Shown: one piece after another, positions 2,414 through 62,208 of the stretch
Position numbering within the stretch: the stretch's first letter is position 1
How the letters are laid out: each line of letters starts with the position of its first letter
Assembly: GCF_964355755.1 (NCBI RefSeq)
Contig: NC_092673.1
Location: 24,239,648 to 24,303,647 of the forward strand
DNA length: 64,000 nucleotides
Direction: 5' to 3'
Origin: Antedon mediterranea
Lineage: Eukaryota > Animalia > Echinodermata
Translations under genes and position numbers: made by a program
Notes under the pieces: generated by a model
What the model was told of the DNA's origin: nothing
Databases searched by the model: none
What the model saw: only the letters and a program-made list of their open reading frames with translations

Positions 2414-3078
2414 TTATGGAATGGCCTTGAATTTGTTTGCATCATTCACAGAGTAAAATGGATATGTGTACTTTTTTCGGCACCCTCGGCGTATCATATT
2501 GTATATATTGCATCTGTTACGGTACTGCTCTGGCCAGTCATCCTCTTCGCTGCTATCACCATTTGCTCTATAAACTATTGCTGGCCCATATTTTTTCCAT
2601 CCGGTATTTTTTCTTCCAGCTTTTCCTCCTCCTCCTCCTCCTCCTACTACTTCTCCTCCTCCTCCTCCTCCATTGACTACCGCATTCCCATTTATTCTTT
2701 GTCCATTATTTACAGTCTGTTTTTTATTTGTCTGTGTTTCAGTTTTAACTATTGACGTACTACCTCCAGCGTTACTACTGATGACAATGCTATTGTCAGT
2801 TGCCTCTTCGGCTGTTATCTGGACTTGAGGTTCTTCAATTTCTGTGACAACTTCTACGTTTGTCTTGTCATTTTGCGTAATGACTTCAATGACGCCTGTT
2901 GGCAGCTTAGGTAGAATTTCTGGTGTTGTGATCTCTTCTCGTATCAGCTCAAAGTCTACTACGGTTGCCATATTGCCCAGTACAGTGATTGCTTCGCTTA
3001 ATGGTCTAAAGCCATGTGCATCAACAGTGATAGTGTATGCACCGGGAGTGAGAAGCCTCCAATAGTCACCGTCAATAG
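2414..3078 (-). CDS. Carboxypeptidase exon 7: end of transthyretin-like domain plus long low-complexity tail
   Basis: Acceptor ttttctag, phase 1. Reads (A)IDGDYWRLLTPGAYTITVDAHGFRP... to TAA at 2416-2414. GDYWRLL-PG is the M14B C-terminal domain signature. Confidence 0.9.
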
Positions 3079-3903
3079 CTAGAAAACATAAACAAAAAAT
3101 ATAATAAGTGAGACTCAGTTTTCGTTATCTATTTTTATTTCAGTGTTTTTCATATTGCGTAATTAACTTTTTAAAAGTGTGTCTGTTATAACGTCATTAT
3201 ATCAAGGAACGTTACATAACCGTAGGCTACTATTACATATATTTTAAAGTACAATATCGGCTGGTGGGGCTAACAGTAATCATCCACACCCTCTAAAAGA
3301 GACAAATTGTCCGACATATTTCGTTTGACGGCCTGTACTTAGAAACACTCGAGAAACTAAAATTGTATGTCAATTGGCCCCACGGTGGATAGCCCTTAGG
3401 AAGTCCTTATGTCTTTATAGTCACTCAACATTTAATCATTATTAAAAGAAATAAAGGCATGTTTTCTAAAGTACCGTTTTGAGACAAACATGTTGTTGTA
3501 GGACCGCCGTTATACCATCAATCCTAGGCCTAATAAAGAGTCAGTCGTTGAACTCGAATAAGGACAATATCAGCAACAGACGACTAGAAACCAATCTAAA
3601 ACATTCATTTTTAAAGACAACAAATTGTTCCGTATCCGGACGTATGAAGAGGTGTTGATGGAAAAGCTGCGCTAGTCAAGTTCTTACTTTCGTCAAATTC
3701 TTTCGTTATTAAATTAAATCCACAAGAAATAAATTTATCATAAATCATAAAATGATAAAACATGTATTATGCCGCAGGTGAATTCACACGCATTTTACAC
3801 TTTGAAGCTACATGCCTAACCTAAATTTTATATTCGCGTTCCAAACATTTCTCAAAAAGTTTTCATTAACTTTCATTACTTTTTATATTGTGTTTTCACA
3901 TAC

Positions 3904-4009
3904 CTGTTGTTATATCATGTTGATACCTAGGACCTGTGATCTTGACAACAGCATTGGCAATCGGATTGCCTTGCAGATCTGTGACTACTCCTTTCACGCC
4001 CATGTGAAT
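3904..4009 (-). CDS. Carboxypeptidase exon 6
   Basis: cccttag|IHMGVKGVVTDLQGNPIANAVVKITGPRYQHDITT|gtatgt; phase 0 to 1, matching both neighbours. Confidence 0.93.
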
Positions 4010-4619
4010 CTAAGGGGGAGAAATAATACTAAAATAAATAGTTTTGTTTGTAACATATACTACGCTAACTAATATTAGGCTTCATAATTTAGAAAAAGAA
4101 ATGAGGACAATTTAGAGAAATTAGGACCGTCAATTAGGTCATCATTTTTTAGACAGATCAATAAGGGCTCAATGTCCTCTGTGATTGGTCGACGTATTTT
4201 TGTCTCAGTCATTGAAGAATCTCATCATTGAAGTGTAAGTTAGATATGAAAGATGTTAAGATAAGAGATGTTTCAAGAGGAATTAGCTAATGTGAACAGG
4301 AGTGAGTAGCAGGCTTGCTTCATTCAACTTAATAATTATACTACTTATGAAACTCTTATATTTGTATCAAGAGATTTCCTAAAAGGTATTAGATTCCCAA
4401 TACATTACTTCTATTCGAAACAACTATTTTCATTTTTTCCAGATAGAATAGATGAAATGTTAAAGTGTTATTTGTATGGAAAATGTCAAATTATAAGATA
4501 GTTTAAAGATCCTAATTTAAAAGAAGTAGCCTAATAAAGCATGCATGCATCGGGTTACCATAAGGTGTACTTTGTATCGCAGTAGCACTATTTCCACAAA
4601 TAAATTATCATCACTTTAA

Positions 4620-4859
4620 AGCTTTGTCTACACTATCAAATGTGATGTGAAAATATATGGACATGATGTCATATCACTACTATATTTAAGCATATTGGTA
4701 ACATGATTGTTTTTGTTACTGTGTATATTTTTTCTTTGTTAAATTTTTATGAATAGTTATGTCAACTTAATCATTGTTTACAATAAAGGAATCACACTGC
4801 CATATTTGGGCAAATCGCACTTTTTTTTATCAAACTAGTTTGATAGTGTAGTCAGAGCT
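4620..4859. mobile_element. PIF/Harbinger-type (Tourist-like) MITE, family A
   Basis: TIR AGCTTTGTCTACACTATCAAA ... TTTGATAGTGTAGTCAGAGCT with TAA/TTA flanks. Related copies at 29344, 54165 and 60451. Confidence 0.75.
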
Positions 4860-4885
4860 TTAGCACAAACAAATGTTATACTCAC

Positions 4886-5025
4886 AGCTTCTATATAAGA
4901 TAACAATGCTTCTTTGTTAGCGTACCATTTATTTTCAAGATCTTCTTCATTCGGAAATTTTTTACATCCAAGTTCCAGGGTGATTTCAAATGCATTTGAT
5001 GCTAAGTAGTTATAATCTTGCATAC
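4886..5025 (-). CDS. Carboxypeptidase exon 5 (catalytic Glu in ITLELGC)
   Basis: tttaag|(G)[46 protein letters not shown]|gtgagt. Confidence 0.95.
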
Positions 5026-5525
5026 CTTAAATTGAATTTCAATAAAGAAAATGTATTTAGTGTTTTAATCGACTTCACCTTTTAAATTACCTTGGACGAT
5101 TTACAACACGATTTTATAGGCATGTATTTTATCAAAGTATTATTATAAATATGGATTTGAGTTTAAAGAGTAGTTCCAGGTTTAACATTTCTATGTTTAT
5201 TATAAATATAAACTTCATGATGCTTCTTCTGCTTCACCGCTATCGAAAAATAAGTGGAGTTATTTAATGTTGTTGAAATGTTTCAGAGCATGTTGAACTT
5301 TGAGCTATACCATATAAGTAAAGTAGGCCTGCCTATGCCGACTGAGGCTACTTGTGTTATCTTCACTTTTCCTTGTCATATGTTTATTACCCTGCACAAC
5401 TATTTGTAGGCCTGTAATAGTATCCCTCTCTCAACCGGGTTGTTCTAATTCGACATCAGAAATGCTCAAAGGTTCATGAGGAATACATGGTGAAATAAAT
5501 GATTTTGTTTTGGTTACATACGTAC

Positions 5526-5820
5526 CTCCTTCTACACTGTACCACGACGCGCCGTTAGTGATTCCGTCTGGAAAGCCTTCTCCATAGCCAAAACATGATT
5601 TAGGCCTAGTGCTTAAAGTTTCATGATTTTTTGAATATATCAAAGAAAGATGGCGGAAAACAGCGTCGTCTGGAGACATACTGTAGAAGTAGCGACCCAT
5701 TGGATCACGTGATTTATCATACGGGTAGTTGACAACCATTTGGCCATCGTGCATGTTCGCTGAGAGCACAAATGGGTGCCTCTGTATCCATCTCATTATT
5801 GCTTTTGTCTCTGGTTGAAG
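5526..5820 (-). CDS. Carboxypeptidase exon 4 (third Zn ligand His)
   Basis: ctgcacag|LQPETKAIMRWIQRHPFVLSANMHDGQMVVNYPYD...GITNGASWYSVEG|gtacgt. Confidence 0.95.
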
Positions 5821-6448
5821 CTGTGCAGAAAAACATTAGTAATCATAAATTGAAATGCTTTATCATATGCCTAATATACAATGCTTAATATACAGACACA
5901 CACATATTAAGCCCATTAAGTGGATACTTCCCTGTAAAAACGAGGGACAATACCGTATATTTTAGCATTCAGGGAACATCACTATAAAGGTTTTATTTTG
6001 TTGGGTCCCCAGTGTTTCCCTTTAATAGCTAGGCGTTCTATTGTACTCTTGTAGAACTTAAACGAAATTGAAATGTTCACTTTATGATTTATAGATCATC
6101 TTTCTGATATTATTTTCCAGGGACAACATGGATAGTTTTAGGCCCCACACATACCTGGAACCAAAGACAAGTTTAGGAGTAGGGGTGAAATACTGGTCAT
6201 GCAATGAGACACTTTGGCGTTTGTTTAAGAGTATCGCAAAAAACATAGGGCTTAATTCGCATTGACAGAAATGCGTTTTCATTGAACTTGCAAACTCAAC
6301 TGAACTGTCTTAGTTCATTTTAATAGTGAGCTTAGATATATAACCAACTGCCTGTCGCGTTACATCCATTGACAGCTGTCTAATTGCAGTTTTATTTGAA
6401 AAGAAATCAGCAATAAATCTTTAATTAGAGTTTTAGTTTACTCAGTCC

Positions 6449-13150: not shown

Positions 13151-15689
13151 TTATTGTGCCGCTAAAAAAAACCCCCTCAGTCCCATGCATGCCCAGACCT
13201 ATGTGTCTAAATGTTGTCGACTTCATTATAAACCATAATGCATGTGAGGAAATGTCTGTGTTTATTACACTCAATCGTGTTTCGACCTAATTATGTGTAG
13301 TCGTTTGACCTGTGTTTTCCAATTTCCTAATAAAATAGTTCACACTATGTACAAAGTGACTTGTTTAAAACAAAAATAAATTCAAATATTGTTTCATCGA
13401 ATATTAAGACCGACAGACAGCAAGGTTGTCTGGAAAATTCGCAGAAAAAGTGTAAAATGGTTATACTAGGCCTGGTTTATGGTTTATTCTTGATATTATC
13501 ATGCTTAACACAATTTGTGGTTTTATTATAATACTGTATTAGTAATTTTTCCTATTTATGTTGTGATGGAAGGAATATCGGGCTAGCATATGGAATGTAT
13601 GGATTATTAGAGATGGTTAGATAAAGAACTTGTTACACAATCAGCAAGTCGATTGTGGCTAAGTGAATGCTTGGGACCCAACCAGAATGTTCTGTTTCTA
13701 ATTAAAGATGTATTGGCCTCTAACCCCCCCCCCCCCCCTCCCCCACCCCAAAAAACAACATAGCAAATGAAGATGAATAAAATCTGACTTATTGCAGTTT
13801 TAATAAAGTTATTCAATTCTGTAAAAAAATAATTAATTAGTTAATTTTAACCAAAAACAATATTTTTTTTTTGCGGTTATTACATCTTTTTAGGTAAATC
13901 ATTTTTGTTTTAGATCCAGTTTTTTGTCAAAGTGAAAAACTATTACGCGATATTAAAAAGGCATATTCAAAAAAAAAATATCTTTAAAGGATGATTGGTA
14001 ACACAATTTATAAACACATAATTTACACACATACACAAAGCATCTAAATATATTTGCAAAATAAAAAAACACTTTATTTAAATGCTTCTAATTTAAACTA
14101 TTAGCATTTTCATTATTTTTGTTTATGTATTTGATAAATGTACAAACTACTGTATTCAAGAAAAAATACTGAACTACGTGGTTAAAAGTTCGTTAAACAA
14201 CAAAAACAACCGGACTTTATATATCGTCGTATATAGCCGAATGAATTACCTCCGGAGGCCATATTAGAGTGGATAATATTGAAAGGAAACATGAACTTGT
14301 GAACTATAATTATGTGTCGATAGTTAAATATTACAATCCAAAATATGTATGTAGACATAAACACTGCTTCATTGCGAATGTCGTCATAAACAAATCTTAA
14401 ACGGTGCAAAACTTGTTAAGACTTTAATTTTTAAAATGGGGTTATGTTATGGCGCTATACCTATAACCTAAATAATGTGGTAGAGTAGGTCTATATAATA
14501 AATATGAACAAAATAGCTAGACCAACGCCCTAGGCAAGACGACACCATTAAATCAGATGATAGTCTGATAATAAGGAAGTTATCAGGTTCCCGCCAATTG
14601 GGGCGGGATGTTTAGCAACGCTTCCTCTAATCGATGTCAAATTGAGGACTATATTGGTATATTTTAGTAACGTAGTATATTTCAGGATTTTGAAACAGGC
14701 AGATATGGGGCGGGGGTGGGCCAAAACATTGTTTAAGTGAACATCCTTTTTTTTTAACTTTAATTTTTGGGAATTTGGGGACGACTTCACCTTCCATTGG
14801 ATCAGCCTACATGATGACCGAGGTTATAAAATACTTTTGACTGGAGAAAGTAAACCGAAGATGTTTCTAATTGAAGGATCGGAAGACTTAATTTATCCCC
14901 ATATAAAAACATAACTATGGCCTCTAAAACAAAAAAATGCCTGCTGTTATATTACTGGCTATTATCATTATCAAGATGAAGATGTAATACCTAATAAATG
15001 TTTTTGTAATTATGTGTATGGTATTATTAGAGCCATAAAATGAAGGAATCTTTCTCCTGTGGATATTATCTTCTCAAGATATACTTCTTGTTTTGGCACT
15101 TTGAAGCGGTGTTAATCATGCATATCGGCCAAATCTGTGGTTGATTGCATGTGTAAAAAGGTTATAAGTTGACATCAACAATACATGAATAGTGTATGCA
15201 GAGCAATATGCAGGATTTGATTAGGATGGGTGCGAAATTCTATAATTTATATTGGGCCCAATTTCGTACTTTGGGAGGGAACTGAGTAACCTGGGATATG
15301 GGGTGGGAGTGGGTTGTTCATGGAGCAATATACATAATAATTAATTCGATTGATTTTCATGAAGCATGTATTTATTGTGTATTTTTTGGATGTTATCCGT
15401 AAAAATCTGATGATTGACTCGTGATTATATTACTTATTATTATTAGAAGGCTGGGATGGTCCTTTTTGAAAATTGAAATGTGGTGCGGGGCCAGTGGTGG
15501 AGGTGCGTGAGTGAGGGAGGGAACGCGCGATACGTATGTGTATTTCAACAAAACCTTGACAATGCGCATCGCGTGATGAAGCGCAGTACGTCATGAATGT
15601 ATCTTAGTAACCGCATAGTAACATTACAACAACTGATCTTAACATTTGAGATTGAACTTTATCTGACAAACTCTTCGTAAAAACCGGCA

Positions 15690-15712
15690 ATGGAATCGAA
15701 AAAAATTAAACG
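15690..15712 (+). CDS. Orphan basic protein copy A, exon 1 (MESKKIK-R)
   Basis: gcaATGG start and CG|gtaagt donor; identical in copy B. Confidence 0.75.
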
Positions 15713-16134
15713 GTAAGTCAATTATTACAGGATGATTTGTTACGAATAAACTATTTAGTGTGTTGTACAAGTTTTAAATCAAAATCTTGAAAGTTATAAT
15801 TATCGGAAACCAATGAGTTGGTAGAGAGATAGATTAGGCCTAAGGCCTAGGCTAACCTCCTACTACTCGCTAACTGCGGTACAAGTATTCTACAATATTA
15901 TTAAGAATCTTGTTCCATATTTCATTAAACTTGTTTTTTTTTTTATTAACTGTTATAGGAATAAATGTTTTCATTTATTTGTTTTAAATGTATATTTTTA
16001 TTCAGGTATTTACTTAGTTTGAATTACATTGTAGGCCTATATATGCGCGTTGCTGACAGTCAGTGTATTATAAACATTTTTTTAGATTAAATATTTACCA
16101 TAACATTATTATTATTATTGAATTTACATTACAG

Positions 16135-16214
16135 TTCTTCAAGAATCCGTGGTGATTATAGGAGAGAACGAATGGCATCACGCCCTCGAACTGGTTCTGA
16201 TTATTCTCTACCAG
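16135..16214 (+). CDS. Orphan basic protein copy A, exon 2
   Basis: ttacag|...CCAG|gtaggc; 80 nt, phase 2 to 1; reads SSRIRGDYRRERMASRPRTGSDYSLP. Confidence 0.75.
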
Positions 16215-16366
16215 GTAGGCATGGCGTCTTTTTTTCAACCATCAAATAATTATTATCATTCACTTTATGTTCAGATTATTATGTTGTTCATTCGCATTGG
16301 TTGGGTTTAATACAAAAATAAATTATAGCCTATATATTTATGACTTTGTAATTTCTTATTTTAAAG

Positions 16367-17031
16367 AGAGAAAGGAGTCATCTGGTGACAGGACAATCCC
16401 TCAAGTTGACAACAACAAAAAGAAAACCCAGAGGAAGCCCAAAAATCGACAGGGAGAAAGGAGTCTTCTGGAAATAGCCAATCCATCCGGGCAGACTAGC
16501 CTTCTCCAACAATTACGTACCTCTAGTCTGTCTGGAAGGAATTTGATTACTGCTGCCCAGGAGGAGCAAGGCCATGAATCTAATAAAAGATCAAGTTTTC
16601 TTCCAAATATTCAACAAGGCAGGACGTCGTTGATCAATCAACCCACTACGAGTGACATCCAATGTATTTTGGAAAATAACATTAACCAACGAAATTCAAA
16701 GAAAAGGGAAAAGAGGTCTAAGAAGAAGGAACAGAAGGCATCAAAGAAAAAACCAGAAGATTTTGAAAGTGTTGAAAGACCAGTTTGTTTCGAAGACACT
16801 GACATCGTACTACAGCTCTCCATACCTGCACCACGGCGTGATGCGTATCTTACCAAGACCGAAATAGACCAATGGGGACAACGATCGAGTGACTTGGAAC
16901 CACTCGAGGTGGTCCCAAAACAACCCGGCAAACTAAAACAAAACGTTTGCTTCAGGCAGAAACCAGGAAGGCAAGAAGCTGTAGAAGACTACTACATGCT
17001 CCATTACCTCAATCACAAAATTTCCCCCTGA
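16367..17031 (+). CDS. Orphan Lys/Arg/Gln-rich protein copy A, exon 3 (total 255 aa)
   Basis: Acceptor tttcttattttaaag, phase 1, joins the long ORF at ERKESSGDR. The three exons sum to 768 nt. No recognisable domain. Confidence 0.8.
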
Positions 17032-18065: not shown

Positions 18066-18853
18066 GTTAGGCCTTACAGTACAGTAAAACCGAATAAGGT
18101 TTCTGATTTTATTTGTTTTAAATATCAATGAATTGCAGCGTAATTAGGCTATACATTCTAAATGAAATTTTTCATTCTAAATGACATCTTGCTCCTTAAC
18201 TAATGTTATTCCTAAATGTTAAACTCCAATGACATAACATAGAGTATAAAGAGAAATTTATATGGCGGATATTTATAAGGGACGTCAGCTTTTGTTTTTG
18301 ATTCTATCCTAAACAATACTGTTCGTATCAAACGCCAGCAGAGAAGTAGCTTTAATGGTAGTTCAGCCGTGGCTGAGTTGTTCCTCCTCCTTTGGGTTAA
18401 TATCAAAAAGTGTGGTTCCTGTTTTTGCTATGACGTAATTCAGAGAGTCTATGACACTTTCAAACAATGGATCATTATTTAACATTAAAAATATCGTGTG
18501 TCGTTGACTGCCAATTTGTTTCCTCCTCGTCCGTGAGATGTATTATTGGTGAAAATGTAACCTATACACAAAACTACGATGAAGTATTTTCAAAAACCAC
18601 CATCCAAACGTTCGGGGGAGAGAGAGAGGGGGTGGTGGGGGAGAGGAGAGGGGGGGGGGAGTGGAGAGAGAGAAGGGTGGGGGCGCGCGATACGTATGTG
18701 TGTATTTGAACGAAATTTCGAAAATGCGCATCGCGCGATGAAGCACAGTACGTCAGTGTATCTTAGTAACCGCATAGTAACAGTACAACAAAATTAATGA
18801 TATTAACGTTTGAGATTGAACTTTATCTGAAAAACTCTTCGCAAAAACCAGCA

Positions 18854-18876
18854 ATGGAATCGAAAAAAATTAAACG
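18854..18876 (+). CDS. Orphan basic protein copy B, exon 1
   Basis: Same ATGGAATCGAAAAAAATTAAACG|gtaagt as copy A. Confidence 0.75.
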
Positions 18877-19302
18877 GTAAGTCAATTATCATAGCACTAT
18901 TTGTTAAGAATAAACTATTTAGTGTGTTGTAAAAATTACAGAAGTTTTAAACCAAAGTCTTGGAAGTTATAACTATCGGAAACCAATGAGTTGGTAGAGA
19001 GATAGATTAGGCCTAAGGCCTAGGCTAGCCTCCTACTAACTGAGGCATACTGTTATACAAGTATTGTACAATATTATAAGACTGTTGTTTCATATTTTAT
19101 TAGGCTTAGTTTTATTTATTTGTTTTAAATATATATTTTTATTCAGGTATTTGGTTTGAATTACATCGTAGGCCTATATACACGCGTTGCTGACAGTCAG
19201 TGTATTATAAACATTTTAGATTAAATATTTACCAATAACATTATTATTATTATTATTAGTAGTGGTGTTATAATTATTATTATTATTTAATTTACATTAC
19301 AG

Positions 19303-19382
19303 TTCTTCAAGAATCCGTGGTGATTCTAGGAGAGAACGAATGGCATCACGCTCTCCAGCTAATTTTGATTACTCTCTACCAG
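19303..19382 (+). CDS. Orphan basic protein copy B, exon 2
   Basis: 80 nt with the same splice sites as copy A; reads SSRIRGDSRRERMASRSPANFDYSLP. Confidence 0.75.
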
Positions 19383-19551
19383 GTAGGCACGACGTCATTT
19401 TTTCAACCATCAAATATTATCCTTAACATCAGTCCTAAATATAATTCACTTTTTGTTCAGATTATTATGTTGTTCATTCGCATTGGTTGGGTTAAAATAA
19501 AAACAAATTATAGCCTATATATTTATGACTTTGTAATTTCTTATTTTAAAG

Positions 19552-20210
19552 AGAGGAAGGAGTCATCTGGTGACCGGACAATCCCTCAAGTTGACAACAA
19601 CAGAAAGAAAACCAAGAGGAAGCCCAAAAAGCGACAGGGAGAAAGGAGTCTTCTGGAAATAGCCAATCCATCCGGGCAGACTAGCCTTCTCCAAAAATTA
19701 CGTACCTCTAGTCTGTCTGAAAGGAATTTGATTACTGCTGCCCAGGAGGAGCAAGGCCATGAATCTAATAAAGGATCAAGTTTTCTTCCAAATCTTCAAC
19801 AAGGCAGGACGTTGTTGATAAATCAACCCATGATGAGGGACATCCAATGTGTTTTGGAAAATAACAATAACCAACGAAATACAAAGAAAAGGGAAAAGAG
19901 GTCTAAGAAGAAGGAACAGAAGGAATCAACAAAAGAACCAGAAGATTTTGAAAGTTTTGAAAGACCAGTTTGTTTCGATGACATCGTACCACAACTCGCC
20001 ATACCTGCACCACGGTGTGATGCATATCTTACAATGACCGAAATAGACCAATGGGGACAACGATCGAGTGACTTGGAACCACTCGAAGTGGTACCAAAAC
20101 TGCCCGGCAAACCAAAACAAAACGTTTGCTTCAGGCAGAAACCAGCAAGACAAGAAGCTGTAGAAGATTACTACATGATTCATTATGTTAACCACAAAAT
20201 GTCCCCTTAA
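19552..20210 (+). CDS. Orphan Lys/Arg/Gln-rich protein copy B, exon 3 (total 253 aa)
   Basis: Paralogous to copy A with an in-frame 6-nt indel; the stop codon is at the homologous position. Confidence 0.8.
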
Positions 20211-21885: not shown

Positions 21886-23676
21886 ATGACGTCGTTACTA
21901 GACTTACAAAATCAACTTCGTGACTTCCCTTGTCATTTTATGTGGGAACTTGAAAAGAAGTCCATCAAACAATTCGGATCCCCTATAAAGCTTATTGACG
22001 AGCATATCAGCGATTCTCCTGCTATGGTAATTGAGGGATTGTTGTTCAAAAGCTACCTTTTCTTTTCGGAGTTCAGAGGAAATGCGGAAAAGAAGAAAAC
22101 CGAATCAATGAAATGTATCAAAGATGTCCGCGATAGAATTCTAAAACAAGATGCATCAAGACAACCTCATATCAACGGTTATTTACTGATTGCTATTGCC
22201 CTTGAAGCCTGGTTTGACAGTCGCGACCAGACCAAACTGGAGGGTAACATTTTGGAGCTTCGAAGGCCGCTTGAATCACTTTATGTGAAGGGATCGCCAG
22301 AGCATAATATGTTTAAAGGAAGTATCCAAGCAACAAAGGGATTTGCCTTGTCTCGTGTCGGCATGCATCGATATACAGAGAGCATTACAGAGTTTGAAAC
22401 AGCATTAGAATTGTGTCCAGTAGAAAATAATTGGCGCTTTTCAATTGGCCTTCTGAGATGGAGGTTAGCTAAAGACTCGGCTAAAAACAGAAATCAAGTT
22501 TGTGATGGTATGAAAGACGTGCTGAGCATTTTCTCTAAGGTTTTAAAAATGAATCCTAATCACAGCTATGCATTAGTTCTTATTGCAGAAATAAGACGTA
22601 GACAGCAGCGTTATGATGAAGCAAAATCCTTTGTAAATTCAGCTCTGGAAAAAATTCCAGTAAATAGAAAGATATTGGGTGAAGCAATAGGAGTTTACAG
22701 AAGGATGGCATATTTTCAAGATGCCATAAGAGTTGTAAATTTCGCTGAAAAATTGAAAGAGCCGCCCAGTTCTTTCATTTATCACCAAGCTTATCTTGTA
22801 TACCGGGATATCTCGACTCCAAAATATCGTGGTGATCCTTCTCTAAAACTAGATTATCTCACAAAAGCAACCGAGGCGAATCCATCGAATCTTTACGCAA
22901 GATGTGACTACGCGGAGGAACTTATTGCCGCAGGGAAATACGATGAAGCTACCGATTGTTTCAACCAGCTCCTGGAAAATTTTAAAGACGACTTTGAGTC
23001 TGTGATTCGCATCAATCTTAACTTTGCTTGGTTTCTCAAAAAACAAAAGAAATGGAGAGAAGCTAATGCTAAATTTCAGAAGGCTGTTGATGTGGCATTA
23101 GATGAATGTAAACAAGATGGTGGTCCACCCATCATTTTCTTTAAAGAGGTTGATGAGAGGGTTAAACAATCAATTCAACAGATCGAGAAGTTCCACGAAG
23201 GAGTGCTCAGAAGAGATCCCAGAAATGTTACATCAAGATTACAGCTAGCAGAATTAAAAGACAAACTTGGCAATAAAAATCGTGCGTGTTGGCACTTTCA
23301 AAAAGTGCTTGACTTGAAGTTAAACATTGACAAAGAACGCGAATGGGAAATTCTCCAATATTTAGCTAAAGTCAAGACGAAGAATGGTATGCTTGGTGAC
23401 GTTGATAGCATAATTGAAAATATGACAAAACTGAATATTTCGCATCCTAAGTCTGATGTTATTAATGAAAGCAAGGCAACACTAGCCGTGCAGAAAGGCA
23501 AGGTTGCTCTACGTGAGAATAAGAGAGAAGATGCTATTAAGCTGATTTTAGAATCGGTTACACTTGGTAGCCTTACAGGAGCAAAACTTCTGCTCGAAGA
23601 GGTGAAACAGATGAAAAGAAACGATAGAAACTTCTACATATATTGTGCCCACATCGATATTTGTAATTGGAAGTAG
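21886..23676 (+). CDS. IFIT-like tetratricopeptide-repeat protein (596-aa ORF, intronless CDS), nested antisense in peptidase intron 1
   Basis: N-terminal LRDFPCHFMWEL matches the IFIT CHFTW motif. GFALSRVG..RY..SI..FE.ALE..P, RWRL, P..SYALVLIA, VYRR and SSFIYHQ occur in IFIT order, followed by extra TPRs. Acceptor ttttcttag lies 20 nt before the ATG. Confidence 0.85.
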   Translation: MTSLLDLQNQLRDFPCHFMWELEKKSIKQFGSPIKLIDEHISDSPAMVIEGLLFKSYLFFSEFRGNAEKKKTESMKCIKDVRDRILKQDASRQPHINGYLLIAIALEAWFDSRDQTKLEGNILELRRPLESLYVKGSPEHNMFKGSIQATKGFALSRVGMHRYTESITEFETALELCPVENNWRFSIGLLRWRLAKDSAKNRNQVCDGMKDVLSIFSKVLKMNPNHSYALVLIAEIRRRQQRYDEAKSFVNSALEKIPVNRKILGEAIGVYRRMAYFQDAIRVVNFAEKLKEPPSSFIYHQAYLVYRDISTPKYRGDPSLKLDYLTKATEANPSNLYARCDYAEELIAAGKYDEATDCFNQLLENFKDDFESVIRINLNFAWFLKKQKKWREANAKFQKAVDVALDECKQDGGPPIIFFKEVDERVKQSIQQIEKFHEGVLRRDPRNVTSRLQLAELKDKLGNKNRACWHFQKVLDLKLNIDKEREWEILQYLAKVKTKNGMLGDVDSIIENMTKLNISHPKSDVINESKATLAVQKGKVALRENKREDAIKLILESVTLGSLTGAKLLLEEVKQMKRNDRNFYIYCAHIDICNWK

Positions 23677-24184
23677 TCTCGAGAAAAACCAAAAGTTATT
23701 ACATGAATTAAAAGAGGATGTCACACAATTACTTTCTGCCAATTCTGTATGTGTCGTTTTACAAGATCTGAGAAAGAAACAATTTGAAATGGAGCGCAGC
23801 GTACTAAAAAATAGCGCAAATCTCTTGACAACACAACTTGAGGTAGTTCACAAATGCCGAAAAATCCTCAACCAGACAATGGCTAAATTTAGAGATCGTC
23901 ATTATGGAAACGTGGACCAATGTGACTATTTCAAAATTTCAAAATGTTCCTCTGAAAACATTGAAGAGGAAGTCAGGAAGAAACTCGAGAAGGGGTATAA
24001 GTGGAAAAAAACAAAGCCTACTTTTAAAAAGCGAGTACCTTTTACTGTAAATCGTTAACATTTCAATGTTTACGTAGAAGATTGCCGATTATTGTTAACG
24101 ATAGCATCGAATAACGTCGACAGGAAAACAGGCTTTAATGAATTGAAAGTAAATAAGATACAATATACTTTTGTGTCTGTTTGA
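23660..24184 (+). pseudogene. Frameshifted and stop-interrupted C-terminal continuation of the IFIT-like ORF
   Basis: A +1 frame overlapping the ORF end is open to TAA 24056-24058 with coding-like helical sequence. The same frame is open for 41 more codons to TGA 24182-24184. Confidence 0.6.
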
Positions 24185-25106
24185 CGTTTTCCAATCTTAA
24201 TTCCTGATGATGCTGATTTTCATTTCTAATTTCCTATAAAAATGTATAGGCCTACAGTAGGCCTAGTAAACTTTTGTGTTGTATTTACTTAATCCACTGT
24301 CCGTTTTTTACATACATTACTCTACTAGGGACATATCTTTACTTCAACTGTGGAAGGATCTGTTCCCCTTTGTTAAATTATAAAAGGTCTCCGGTTCTTC
24401 TACAGCTCTTTATGTTGGTCGGTTGGTTGGTCGGTTGGTCGGTAAACATTAACTTGAGCACGCGACTGCAGCCATGTATATGGCCTTATCCGATGTAATC
24501 TGCAATTTTACTTACAAGGGACCAATGTTTAGTGATTCGTGGACTGCGCGGTTTTTCTTTTTCGTACGTTAGGTGTATTATTGGTTAAACTTAATGTAGC
24601 CTAACAATGTTATGGATCTCACTAGTTCATTAGTCCCGTTCAGCTATTCGAATTACCATAGCGCTACAGTATTTCAATACCGCATATTAATTGGAAAAGG
24701 AAAAAACACATTGCGTATCAGCTACCGTTCATTCGGGTGGATTGGGTAGTCGTTATGTTTTTTTTTTTTGGTGTAATATAAGGGTAACATGTATAGGCCT
24801 ATAATCAAATAAATACCCACTAGATAGAAACATATTTAATATCAAGAAGTGATACAATACAGTAAAAAATATCACTTGGCAATTTCTATTATCACAAATT
24901 ACCGGTACAGTACTGTTATAGAACTATACTGGATTGGAATGATTATGATTCGAAAGCGGACACTATACAAAGTTCAACTCTATAAACCAGTCGACTGATG
25001 ATGTGAGGAGGAAGCGGAAACGCCCATAATAAGTTAAAACGTTCTAATACGTTTGATGAGATGGGTTATAAACCAATTAAACATAGCCGGGTGAAGCAAT
25101 ACTGAA

Positions 25107-49840: not shown

Positions 49841-50388
49841 AGTAGTGGCTTATGCATTTTTTTTTTAGAACAGGACTGAGGTCTTGATTAAATACATTAT
49901 TTGATTAAATTTATTCATAATCGTATTAATTTAGTAAATTCTCCACGATGTAATTAATTTCATCTACTACGATGTTTAATTCATTTTTAAAAATTAATAC
50001 AGATTATTGTTCTTGTTTATACATATTAATATAAATATTCATGCAAAGTTATGTTATAATTTCTCAATATCTAATTTAATCAATGTGAACATTAATGCAC
50101 CATAGTTTTTATACGATTTATTAAACTGTTGCTTGATATTTATTATTTATGTTGATCCATGTTTACAATTATTCTGTTTATATCACCATTATTAATGATT
50201 GTGTGAGTTAATTGAAAGAGCTTGTTTATTAATCGTTCTGTCTTAAAGAACACAAGTTGTGGAATATATTGAAGTTAAAAGAAACTATGTGCATCGATAA
50301 AATTGTCTGTCAATTGCGGTAGACAACACTAGTCATGATCATTCATACCTGCAAGTTGCTTAGCTAAAGAGAAGAGGCGACAGAGTCC

Positions 50389-50904
50389 TGAGAATTGCAG
50401 AGGTTCAACTAGTGGTCTTAGAATTGCCTAGACTCAACTGGTAGTCTGAGAATTGCAGAGGCTCAACTTGTAGTCTTAGAATTGCCTAGACTCAACTGGT
50501 AGTCTGAGAATTGCAGAGGCTCAACTTGTAGTCTTAGAATTGCCAAGACTTAACTGGTGGTCTGAGAATTGCAGAGGCTCAACTTGTAGTCTTAGAATTG
50601 CCTAGACTCAACTGGTGGTCTTAGAATTGCCGAGATTCAACTGGTGGTCTGAGAATTGCCAAGACTCAACTGGTGGTCTGTGAATTGCCGAGAATCAAAT
50701 GGTGGTCTGAGAATTGCCGAGAATCAACTGGTCTGAGAATTTCCAAGACTCAAATAGTGGTCTGAGAATTGCCGAGACTCAAATAGTGGTCTGAGAATTT
50801 CCGAGAGTCAACTGGTTGTCTGAGAATTGCCGAAACTCAACTGGTGGTATGAGAATTGCCGAAGCTCAATTGGTGGTCTGAGAATTGCTAAGGCTCAACT
50901 GGTG
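50389..50904. repeat. Minisatellite, 29-bp unit x about 17.5, alternating A/B dimer at the left end
   Basis: Unit tgagaattgccgagactcaactggtggtc. Early units alternate gcagaggctcaacttgta and gcctagactcaactggt. Confidence 0.95.
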
Positions 50905-57399: not shown

Positions 57400-59120
57400 C
57401 TTGTTAATAAGGATTCTACTGCATATTGTATAGTTTTAAAAGTAGAATCCCTATTTGGTAGCACTATTCTTAGCACATTTTCTGAGAAACCAACATAGTC
57501 TTGGCCAACCTCTGTTAAGGGGACAGTTACACTGTTGGGTCCTGAAGAGGACAGTGTTTCTCTTCTCTGTATGCATATACGGTCAAATTCGTAATACCAG
57601 ACACCTTTGGGCTGGCTAAATATGTCTGGTTTTCTAGAAAGTAAAGATTGCAATATTGTAAAATACGCTGACGATACTGTAATAAAATAATTGGTTTTCT
57701 TTGCGATAGTAAGCATAATGTAAATGAATTTGTTAATGAAGTTGGAAGATTTGTTAATTGGTGTGAGGGTATGAACTTAATACTTAATATTACTAAAACC
57801 AAAGAGATGATAATAGATTTTCGTAAAACCACAGTTGAACATAATGTAATAACTGTTAAAGAAACCGAGGTGGAAAGAGTAACCCAATACAAATACTTAG
57901 GTACTATAATTGACAATAGATTAAAATGGGAGTCGAACTCTCTCATGATTTCCAAGAAGGCATCTCAAAGGCTTGACTTTCTCAGAAAACTCAAGCAAAT
58001 TAGAGTTGATAACACTATTTTAATTCTATTTTATCAAAGTATTATTCAAAGTATTTTATCTTTTAGCATTGGATGTTTTTATGGTAACTATACTGATAAT
58101 GATAAGAAAAATATTGAGAGACCACGTAAAATTGCACAACGTATTATTAAAACTGAACGCCTTGTTCATTTATCTATGAAAAGAGTGATTTTAAAAAAAG
58201 TAAACAATATTATGAAAGACCCCACTCATCCGTTACATTACTGTTATAACTTAAAAAATCAGGTATTAGGCTACGACCTCCAAGAGCAAATCTTTGTAGA
58301 ACTAGAAAATCCTTCGTTGTAAATAGCATTCTTTTTTTTTAATTCTAATGTAAGACGATAATGCAATTTTTAAATAGTTTTACATTTTTAACAGTTTTTC
58401 ACGCTGCTGCTCTAGCCCGCTATGTCCCATTAGGACTACTCAATCAGAAGCTAAAGCAAGCAGCATTTATAGTTCTAAGGACGACAGTTTTGCGAAAATG
58501 GAAACTCCACTATAATTTATTGATCCCAGCTGCTACAGTAGACCCAAAAAACATCTGGGAAAAGAGTCTATTAGGACATGTCATGCTAAAATTACAAATC
58601 CCAAAGCATTTCTGGTATATTCACTGTCAGATATTCATTGAATTACTGTATTATCGAAAGAGTCCATTAAAGTTTGTGTTTGTAACTTGACCTTAGCAAT
58701 AAAATTAACTAAAGTGACAGAAATTGAGTATTCACTTCTGTAACAAAAACATAATATTTATTCACATATAAAAAGAGAAAAGAAACCCAAAAACCATTGT
58801 CTGACAGACAATTTAAGTATTTGTTGCTTTAAATTACATTTTTTTCAGGTAAAATAACTATTATGTGACAATAAAATGACACATTCAAAAACATTTGAAA
58901 TAAAAAATATTTTTTAATAAGCGAGCAGCGTTTTTTGTAAGAAATATTTCTTGTTTATTTTTAACTTTTTATCTTGTATTTTAATCTGTTATAATACTGC
59001 ACGTTTTAAATTGTTGCAACATTTTTTATGTTTGTTTTTTATTGTTGTTTTAATCTACCAAGCAAAGTGAATTTCCATTTTTATGGACAAATAAAATTTC
59101 TTGAATCTTGAATCTTGAAT
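57400..59120 (+). mobile_element. Degraded Rex1/Babar-like LINE: reverse transcriptase C-terminal half, 3' UTR (with inserted HINE) and tail
   Basis: KYADDTV at 57661; LNITKTKEMIIDFRK, VERVTQYKYLGTIIDNRLKW, KKASQRLDFLRKL, DPTHPLH; frameshifts; ends atggacaaataaa-(cttgaat)3. Left boundary approximate. Confidence 0.88.
58395..58954 (+). mobile_element. Helentron-associated (HINE-like) element, copy 2, inserted in the LINE 3' UTR
   Basis: Same termini and body as 40060-40658, lacking about 50 bp internally; T-rich flanks. Confidence 0.75.
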
Positions 59121-61646: not shown

Positions 61647-62208
61647 TCCCCAACACATGCCCCAGTAAATGTACCAGCACATGCCCTAGTACATACCCCA
61701 GCACATGCCTTAGTACATGCCCCAGCACATGCCCTAGTACATGCCCCAACACATGCCCTAGTACATGCCCCAACACATGCCCTAGTACATGCCCCAGCAC
61801 ATGCCCTAGTACATGGCCCAGCACATGCCCTAGTACATGGCCCAGCACATGCCCTAGTACATGGCCCAGCACATGCCCTAGTACATGCCCCAACACATGC
61901 CCTAGTACATGCCCCAACACATGCCCTAGTACATGCCCCAACACATGCCCTAGTACATGCCCCAGCACATGCCCTAGTACATGCCCCAGCACATGCCCTA
62001 GTACATGCCCCAGCACATGCCCTAGTACATGCCCCAACACATGCCCTAGTACATGCCCTAATACATGCCCAACACATGCCCTAGTACATGCCCCAACACA
62101 TGCCCCAACACATGCCCTAGTACATGCCCTAGTACATGCCCCAACACATGCCCCAGCACATGCCCCAACGCATGCCCCAGCACATGCCCCAACGCATGCC
62201 CCAGCACA
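61647..62208. repeat. Minisatellite, 12-bp unit x about 46 (acatgccc-tagt/cagc/caac), mostly as 24-bp dimers
   Basis: Directly visible array; it generates the TCPS, HVLG and ACTR repeat ORFs in the ORF track. Confidence 0.97.

Follow-up and report, generated by a model that had tools for sequence, protein, structure and literature searches.

IFITs are described as RNA-binding proteins of jawed vertebrates and of the interferon era, devoid of catalytic activity. HEPN RNases are metal-independent endoribonucleases that dimerise, each pair sharing a composite active site. Liu et al. (2013, PMC3688568) confine IFITs to jawed vertebrates, and fusions of HEPN domains to TPR, NACHT, dsRBD and ankyrin modules have been listed (PMC3710099, Table 1 and section 16). 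We analyzed a stretch of 64,000 nucleotides of Antedon mediterranea DNA (contig NC_092673.1, positions 24,239,648 to 24,303,647 of the forward strand; hereafter the window). An earlier note, made from the letters alone, had proposed that it carries a disabled gene joining an IFIT-like TPR scaffold to a C-terminal HEPN-like domain. The finding is the family behind this broken copy and not the copy itself: in ambulacrarians an IFIT-like TPR scaffold is followed by a C-terminal domain which would likely be an RNase, switched on by the binding of foreign RNA to the TPR part. From the models and comparisons below we give this reading a probability of about 0.55. With a nuclease for RNA predicted at the C-terminus, it is likely that these animals combine the sensing and the cutting of RNA in a single polypeptide.

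The IFIT-like scaffold and the extra domain of intact relatives

The window holds, on the + strand, an open reading frame (ORF) of 596 residues, from the ATG at 21886 to a TAG at 23674-23676. It is 114 residues longer than IFIT5 (482 residues), in line with the excess of about 120 announced in the earlier note. Many Pfam TPR matches fall within this ORF and the coding region of its TPR part lies in one frame. The closest relatives of the encoded protein are four crinoid IFIT-like proteins (43-69% identity), and its best natural match among PDB sequences is IFIT5 (E 4.4e-13).

Searching 1.84 billion representatives by phmmer with the tail of P0004, an intact 780-residue protein of Anneissia, we obtained 22 proteins at E<=0.001. 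The 21 named members (P0023 excepted) belong to Anneissia, Antedon, Amphiura, Ptychodera and Glandiceps, and several are annotated as IFIT-like. Word-index searches with the window tail and with the domain alignment gave no match; the family was found by the unindexed search. Homologues do continue beyond the first stop; intact ones are present in crinoids, in acorn worms and in one brittle star. Intact full-length members have 768-870 residues including an extra domain, unlike the all-TPR IFITs of about 470-480 residues, which lack an enzyme domain.

The N-terminal part of the family is IFIT-like beyond generic TPR similarity. Compared with the PDB, the family profile matches IFIT5 (E 3.5e-49) and IFIT1 (E 9.3e-47), each in one stretch that starts at profile position 3-4 and ends near 460-469. 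Among natural TPR proteins outside the IFITs, OGT follows (4e-31), and only an engineered consensus TPR outscores IFIT5 and IFIT1. With a full-length model (mean per-residue confidence, pLDDT, 91.2), Foldseek placed IFIT1 and IFIT5 first and at every rank shown down to 14, with a TM-score of 0.76, by target, for 4hoq. H19 and W22, near the N-terminus, are conserved in 12 of 12 rows of the family.

A midpoint-rooted tree of 22 rows (P0006, P0018, P0019, P0023 and P0027 left out) splits hemichordates from echinoderms and ophiuroids from crinoids, members grouping by lineage; the window copy clusters with P0002, P0003 and P0008 of Antedon. From this we infer that the fusion dates back to the ambulacrarian ancestor or earlier and was followed by lineage-specific expansions.

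Intact members end in a helical domain of about 190 residues, and, as the earlier note had supposed, this extra domain is not a run of further TPRs. Among the 20 rows that cover it, KH is found in 18 and NxxKH in 17, the His lying at the end of predicted helix 3; intact copies do keep a conserved His motif. QP and a W are also near-invariant. The AlphaFold2 model of the P0007 domain (pLDDT 94.1, predicted TM-score 0.88) comprises a linker helix, helices 22-43 and 46-75, an insert (76-137), helix 138-151, a hairpin and helix 178-197, with His151 at the very end of helix 138-151. When this fold was compared with 48,161 chains by VIA-align, nine of the top ten matches were HEPN proteins (best Z 7.6, root-mean-square deviation 3.5 over 122 residues), one of them being 5yep, which we take to be a HEPN protein. 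The other eight were assigned by their titles, or from Table 1 and the text of PMC3710099. In a second VIA-align comparison the top four were HEPN proteins or Csm6. The position of the motif agrees: helix 3 ends in the His, four residues upstream of which stands a polar residue (N, D or H in HEPN domains), and the HEPN motif occupies the equivalent place (PMC3710099, section 7).

The same domain exists on its own in prokaryotes. The domain profile matched three of the 351 genomes of one phylum. Two of these matches are real, a stand-alone protein of 231 residues (L120 in genome G187, E 5.7e-13 per genome) and a weaker one (L121); the third, L122, was judged a chance hit to a coiled coil. Two further phyla gave none (0/351 and 0/291 genomes) and a fourth gave two weak matches among 291 genomes. 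With L120 as query we collected 29 metagenome loci (L138-L166). These proteins share the pattern [LI]RS.LD, YFPI, QP, W and N..KH or.SEKH; the pattern that the earlier note had named (LRS.LD, YFP, N..KH) is thus that of a real stand-alone family, homologous to the animal domain. The His is present in 30/30 prokaryotic rows and KH in 28/30, L165 (a broken frame of 37 residues) being left out of the count. The reverse profile, built on the prokaryotic rows, matches the animal proteins in their C-terminal domain (best 40 bits), and hhalign aligns the two families over 181 columns (98.4%, E 8.4e-15). These comparisons establish at the sequence level that the animal domain and the prokaryotic family are homologous.

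We scanned the neighbours of 17 of the 29 loci, picked for length and divergence. A DNA methylase or restriction-type nuclease gene stands at 13 of the 17, often directly upstream (the restriction-type neighbours being of DpnI, DpnII, ThaI, TdeIII, NgoPII, GmrSD, HsdR, PabI and MutH type); since many of the scanned loci are close relatives, 13/17 overstates their independence. Restriction-modification is one of the commonest HEPN contexts (PMC3710099, section 10). L120 itself lies after HNH and T5orf172/MUG113 genes, and L121 after an integrase fragment. The prokaryotic family (L120, L121, L138-L166) is a candidate defence RNase in its own right. Those of its members that were scanned match no Pfam, NCBIfam or PADLOC model. 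Searches of plasmids by tblastn with two animal domains returned only noise (E 3-9), and the bacterial protein as query found no match in plasmids and phages.

Several results weigh against the assignment of the C-terminal domain to HEPN and of the scaffold to IFITs. The canonical Arg of Rx4-6H is missing: an R directly precedes the Asn in 0/20 animal rows, and any R four to six residues upstream of the His occurs in only 2/20 animal and 2/30 prokaryotic rows, by chance spacing. The helix-2 Ex3[KR] motif, frequent though not general in HEPN domains, is absent as well, ExR being found in 7/20 rows, and two members of Glandiceps and Ptychodera (2/20) lack the His motif. The best Z of VIA-align is below 8, the bar of this tool for helical bundles, and may reflect a common helical arrangement; a non-HEPN bundle, 1z23, comes close behind (Z 6.2). 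Foldseek with the domain model gave no match at E<=0.001 in PDB and BFVD. No Pfam or PADLOC family covers the domain, one member touching DUF4145 at E 0.1, and no NCBIfam model matched among the few members scanned. Sequence searches of the PDB with the animal and prokaryotic profiles gave nothing meaningful, and ESM feature matches to HEPN families score 0.78-0.84, below 0.9, and serve as leads only. Membership in HEPN_Cthe2314 (PF18730) was rejected: hhalign gives 0.2% for the animal domain and 0.4% for its prokaryotic kin, and the ten Cthe_2314 members compared have invariant R, N and H (RNxxxH). As for the scaffold, PMC3688568, which dealt with other species, left acorn-worm and lancelet TPR proteins out of the IFIT family in 2013; these may or may not be proteins of the family described here.

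Since its Z falls within the range of generic bundles, the fold call rests on the enrichment in HEPN matches and on the position of the motif. PMC3710099 accepts some HEPN families with H and without R (Parep1/8, c2405), so the missing Arg lowers canonical membership and not resemblance. On this basis the domain quite probably has a HEPN-related fold. We call it HEPN-like, a predicted likeness and not a proven membership. The fold matches and the conserved His speak for the HEPN-like reading of the earlier note; against it stand the missing canonical Arg and a fold score too low to rule out a generic four-helix bundle.

Possible action of the intact proteins and competing explanations

We infer the working of the intact proteins by analogy. 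The TPR channel would bind a feature of foreign RNA, and the ligand in the channel would release or dimerise the HEPN-like domains, bringing two of them together. The paired domains would then cut RNA, either viral or, for translation arrest, host RNA, as with RNase L. The helix-3 His would be catalytic, and the conserved Lys just before it, or the conserved Arg of helix 2, would stand in for the motif Arg. That intact copies contain an active RNase seems to us somewhat probable.

A basic RNA channel in the TPR part is plausible. By hand mapping from the HMMER alignment, the window protein keeps K150 (as Arg), Y156, R186, R260, H287, Q288 and R294 of IFIT5, while E33, T37, Q41, Y250, R253, Y254 and K257 are changed; across the family, position 186 is R or K in 16/16 rows and Q288 is kept in 17/19. 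Nine IFIT5 residues have a “high” binding effect (Table 5 of PMC9677429). The window protein keeps four of them (R186, R260, Q288 and K150 as Arg) and has lost T37, Q41, Y250, R253 and Y254, a further count against the proposed sensing. As only four of the nine strong residues are kept, sensing of RNA 5' ends has to be worded with caution: the intact members may be triggered by such ends, at odds that we set rather below even.

The nuclease might be active and its trigger be different from a 5'-triphosphate RNA end: the TPR part could recognise RNA with another kind of cap, a protein of the virus or a partner in signalling, or could serve only to chaperone or inhibit the nuclease. The changes at R253, Q41 and T37, among the five lost residues, would fit this, as would a scaffold larger by about 110 residues. 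But the retention of the channel-lining K150(R), R186, R260, H287, Q288 and R294, and the constancy of positions 186 and 288, argue against it, and we find it unlikely, though not negligibly so.

In another explanation the C-terminal domain derives from HEPN and has no catalytic role: as a module that binds RNA or dimerises, it would lengthen the IFIT clamp and stop translation with no cleavage. The missing Arg and the loss of the motif in two members would suit such a module, and HEPN domains without motif can bind RNA (PMC3710099, section 6). However, hemichordates, echinoderms and prokaryotes share a strong conservation of N, K, H, R and Q, which is unusual for a passive binder, families having H without R are listed in PMC3710099, and the stand-alone prokaryotic form lies in restriction-modification regions. 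A non-catalytic module thus appears clearly unlikely, and an RNA-triggered RNase is the reading that we retain.

The broken copy in the window

The features of the locus are collected in the table below. We compared the window with contigs of X1 and X2, which are one sample and possibly the source of the window, of X5, another sample under the same organism label, and of X7 and X9, which represent a related organism.

Table. Features of the IFIT-like gene copy in the window and of its replaced 3' end
Feature	Position	Strand	Basis
IFIT-like TPR scaffold	21886..23664	+	593 codons in a single unbroken frame; IFIT5 is the top PDB sequence match; crinoid relatives
Extra A, +1 frameshift	23665..23666	+	AA against A in intact copies; falls where the last TPR helix meets the C-terminal domain
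Remnant of the HEPN-like C-terminal domain, out of frame	23666..24026	+	Covers the linker helix, the first two helices and the greater part of the insert (positions 2-121 of the 191 in the profile, which includes the window row itself)
Helix-2 motif VHKCRKILNQTMAKF, family R-x-x-L-[D/N]	23846..23890	+	R in 18/20, L in 21/21, D/N in 20/21 rows
High-copy interspersed repeat replacing the 3' end of the gene	24027..24137		Contig depth, loose ends, opposite-strand joints
41-codon open stretch, outside the domain	24059..24184	+	Scores 0.0 bits with the domain profile, and out of order; overlaps the repeat

With P0004 as tblastn query, the match in frame 1 ends at 23664 and a second match runs in frame 2 from 23639 to 24052 (43% identity, E 4.6e-26). 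The frameshift is therefore real as a sequence feature. X5, X7 and X9 have exactly one base fewer at 23665, while X1 and X2 have the extra base, with no gap. This bears out the +1 frameshift that the earlier note had placed near 23660-23676. Past 23664 the ORF adds only three codons (NWK) before its TAG. An intron at this place was ruled out, because homologues align straight across it and the other samples differ by a single base.

The note had counted about 130 hidden residues behind the shift. The 120 codons from 23666 to 24025 do belong to the family; the last ten before the TAA (ending RVPFTVNR) are repeat. Likewise the peptides that it quoted, the TAA at 24056-24058 and the 41 further open codons are present in the letters, but RVP and the codons after the TAA are not protein. 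The repeat holds this TAA and the first 79 bases (24059-24137) of the 41-codon stretch, whose remainder is flank. In X1 the summed contig depth reaches 564,855 in the repeat, from about 24030 to 24137, against 221 in the adjoining flank, i.e. about 2,500-fold; the repeat shows heterogeneous loose ends at 24135/24137 and joints to the opposite strand. It has no Rfam match, and a tandem-repeat scan does not explain it either. Since the last codons before the TAA and the stretch after it are repeat and flank, “F..R.P” and the “final amphipathic helix” resemble the domain by chance and have to be removed from it. Nor is the catalytic segment missing as a short gap near 24045: for the final 88 or so residues of the domain, which span helix 3 and its His motif, the hairpin and helix 4, the whole window offers no significant match, the tail having been replaced by the repeat.

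X5, X7 and X9 depart from the window at 24026-24028, and their sequence beyond this point reads in frame and resembles the coding sequence of the family. In both X1 and X2 the unique contigs stop exactly at 24026, which would be a fork, perhaps due to an intact second allele in the same sample. The sample of X5 is intact at both lesion sites on one contig, and the window copy is therefore a segregating allele or a close paralogue. Both lesions are in all likelihood real. The window copy is a doubly broken allele, by frameshift and by replacement of its tail, i.e. a case of ordinary decay; it could supply the sensor only, and its product could be at most a sensor of 596 residues without effector. 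Separately, X5, X7 and X9 include more divergent contigs at 23551-23663 and 23838-23905, which represent at least one or two further paralogues of the gene.

The His motif is also lacking elsewhere in the family, by substitution or because the product ends before it, in P0025 and P0026 of hemichordates and in P0002, P0003, P0005 and P0008 of Antedon. In the four Antedon proteins, all of the clade of the window copy, it is the annotated product that stops before the motif (P0002 being marked partial). This suggests a repeated disarming of family members, which for Antedon rests on annotation. The product of 596 residues might then be a working sensor-only or decoy IFIT like those of vertebrates, the loss of the effector being recurrent and selected. 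The fully open TPR frame, a shift exactly at the domain border and the four Antedon products are compatible with this. On the other side, the other sample of the same label is intact, two independent lesions cluster in the tail, and the Antedon truncations are evidence at the level of annotation; we consider a selected sensor-only protein improbable, and keep the decay of one allele as our interpretation. That the breaks are errors in the assembly of the window is very improbable: the other samples are intact, the unique contigs of X1 and X2 stop at 24026 and none of the contigs listed spans the left junction of the repeat, but X1 and X2 both carry the extra base (792 = 789+3 letters, and 789 letters without gaps), the 23665 site is not a homopolymer run, their contigs connect the right end of the repeat to the window flank (24112/24116-24427), and contigs would stop there as well if an intact and a broken allele forked at that point.

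The remainder of the window contains other features. A second repeat lies downstream of the gene at 24414-24487, with GTTGGTCG units and an even higher copy number (summed depth 1.4 million in X1). On the minus strand, 2414-5835 contains exons of a gene for an M14 zinc carboxypeptidase that also has a carboxypeptidase regulatory-like domain. A tandem duplication of about 1.5 kb (15514-17027 and 18674-20206, 85% identity) carries in each copy an open frame of 270-315 codons, whose protein would be charged, of low complexity and not convincingly assignable to any Pfam family. The reading frame at 57672-58322 has a Pfam ALKBH8_N match and is presumably the remnant of a frame of non-LTR retroelement type. 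Two minisatellites, of 29 bp (18 copies, 50388-50904) and 24 bp (23 copies, 61648-62208), contain long spurious ORFs.

Comparison with known systems

We found no description of an IFIT-HEPN fusion in the literature covered; subscription papers and the supplements of PMC3710099 and PMC8195603 were outside this coverage, and the supplements could list the family. The animal HEPN fusions reported in the available text of PMC8195603, bioRxiv 2025.07.21.665930 and PMC9334734 are other ones only, and an IFIT scaffold does not appear among the HEPN fusions in the portion of PMC3710099 that we used. Animal fusions of HEPN to other sensors are thus already known; what would be new is the IFIT scaffold as partner, together with a catalytic motif that has no name. 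If this holds, NxxKH would be a new catalytic variant of the HEPN fold. A family combining an IFIT scaffold with an enzyme-like domain would also push back the origins of IFITs and tie them to bacterial immunity. A bolder and rather doubtful extension is that IFITs began as one-chain “sense and cut” receptors, the IFIT clamp having been armed in an ambulacrarian, perhaps older, lineage with a bacterial restriction-associated RNase of a so far undescribed NxxKH HEPN type; vertebrate IFITs, and likewise the window allele, would be what is left of such receptors once the effector is lost.

With vertebrate IFIT5 and IFIT1 (PDB 3zgq, 4hor, 5w5h) the family shares a TPR scaffold that is homologous from the first helix, the N-terminal H-F-x-W motif and a one-frame coding region, and several RNA-channel residues are retained in the window protein. 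It differs from them by about 110 more TPR residues, by the C-terminal enzyme-like domain of about 190 residues in intact copies, by the change in the window protein of five of the nine strong RNA-binding residues, and by its presence in echinoderms and hemichordates, IFITs being restricted to jawed vertebrates in PMC3688568.

With HEPN RNases (the HEPN-MNT toxins 8xdj/7ae2, Csm6 and Las1; Anantharaman et al. 2013, PMC3710099) the C-terminal domain has in common a predicted up-down core of four helices, the second and third separated by an insert, a His at the end of helix 3 with an Asn four residues before, the top structural matches, and a prokaryotic form near restriction-modification genes. 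It departs from them in having NxxKH and not RNxxxH, a conserved helix-2 Arg and no Ex3R, and in matching none of the Pfam HEPN families by sequence or by profile. The prokaryotic LRS.LD-YFPI-QP-N..KH family is the same domain over its whole length; unlike the animal form it consists of stand-alone genes of about 220-230 residues, has a longer beta insert and lies mostly in restriction-modification regions, and no TPR fusion was seen among its members. Finally, RNase L/Ire1 (KEN), DZIP3-type and CXorf38-type HEPN proteins likewise have a HEPN-type effector attached to a part that senses or regulates, and belong to an immune context, whereas the ambulacrarian family does so with a different HEPN-like family and a different sensor.

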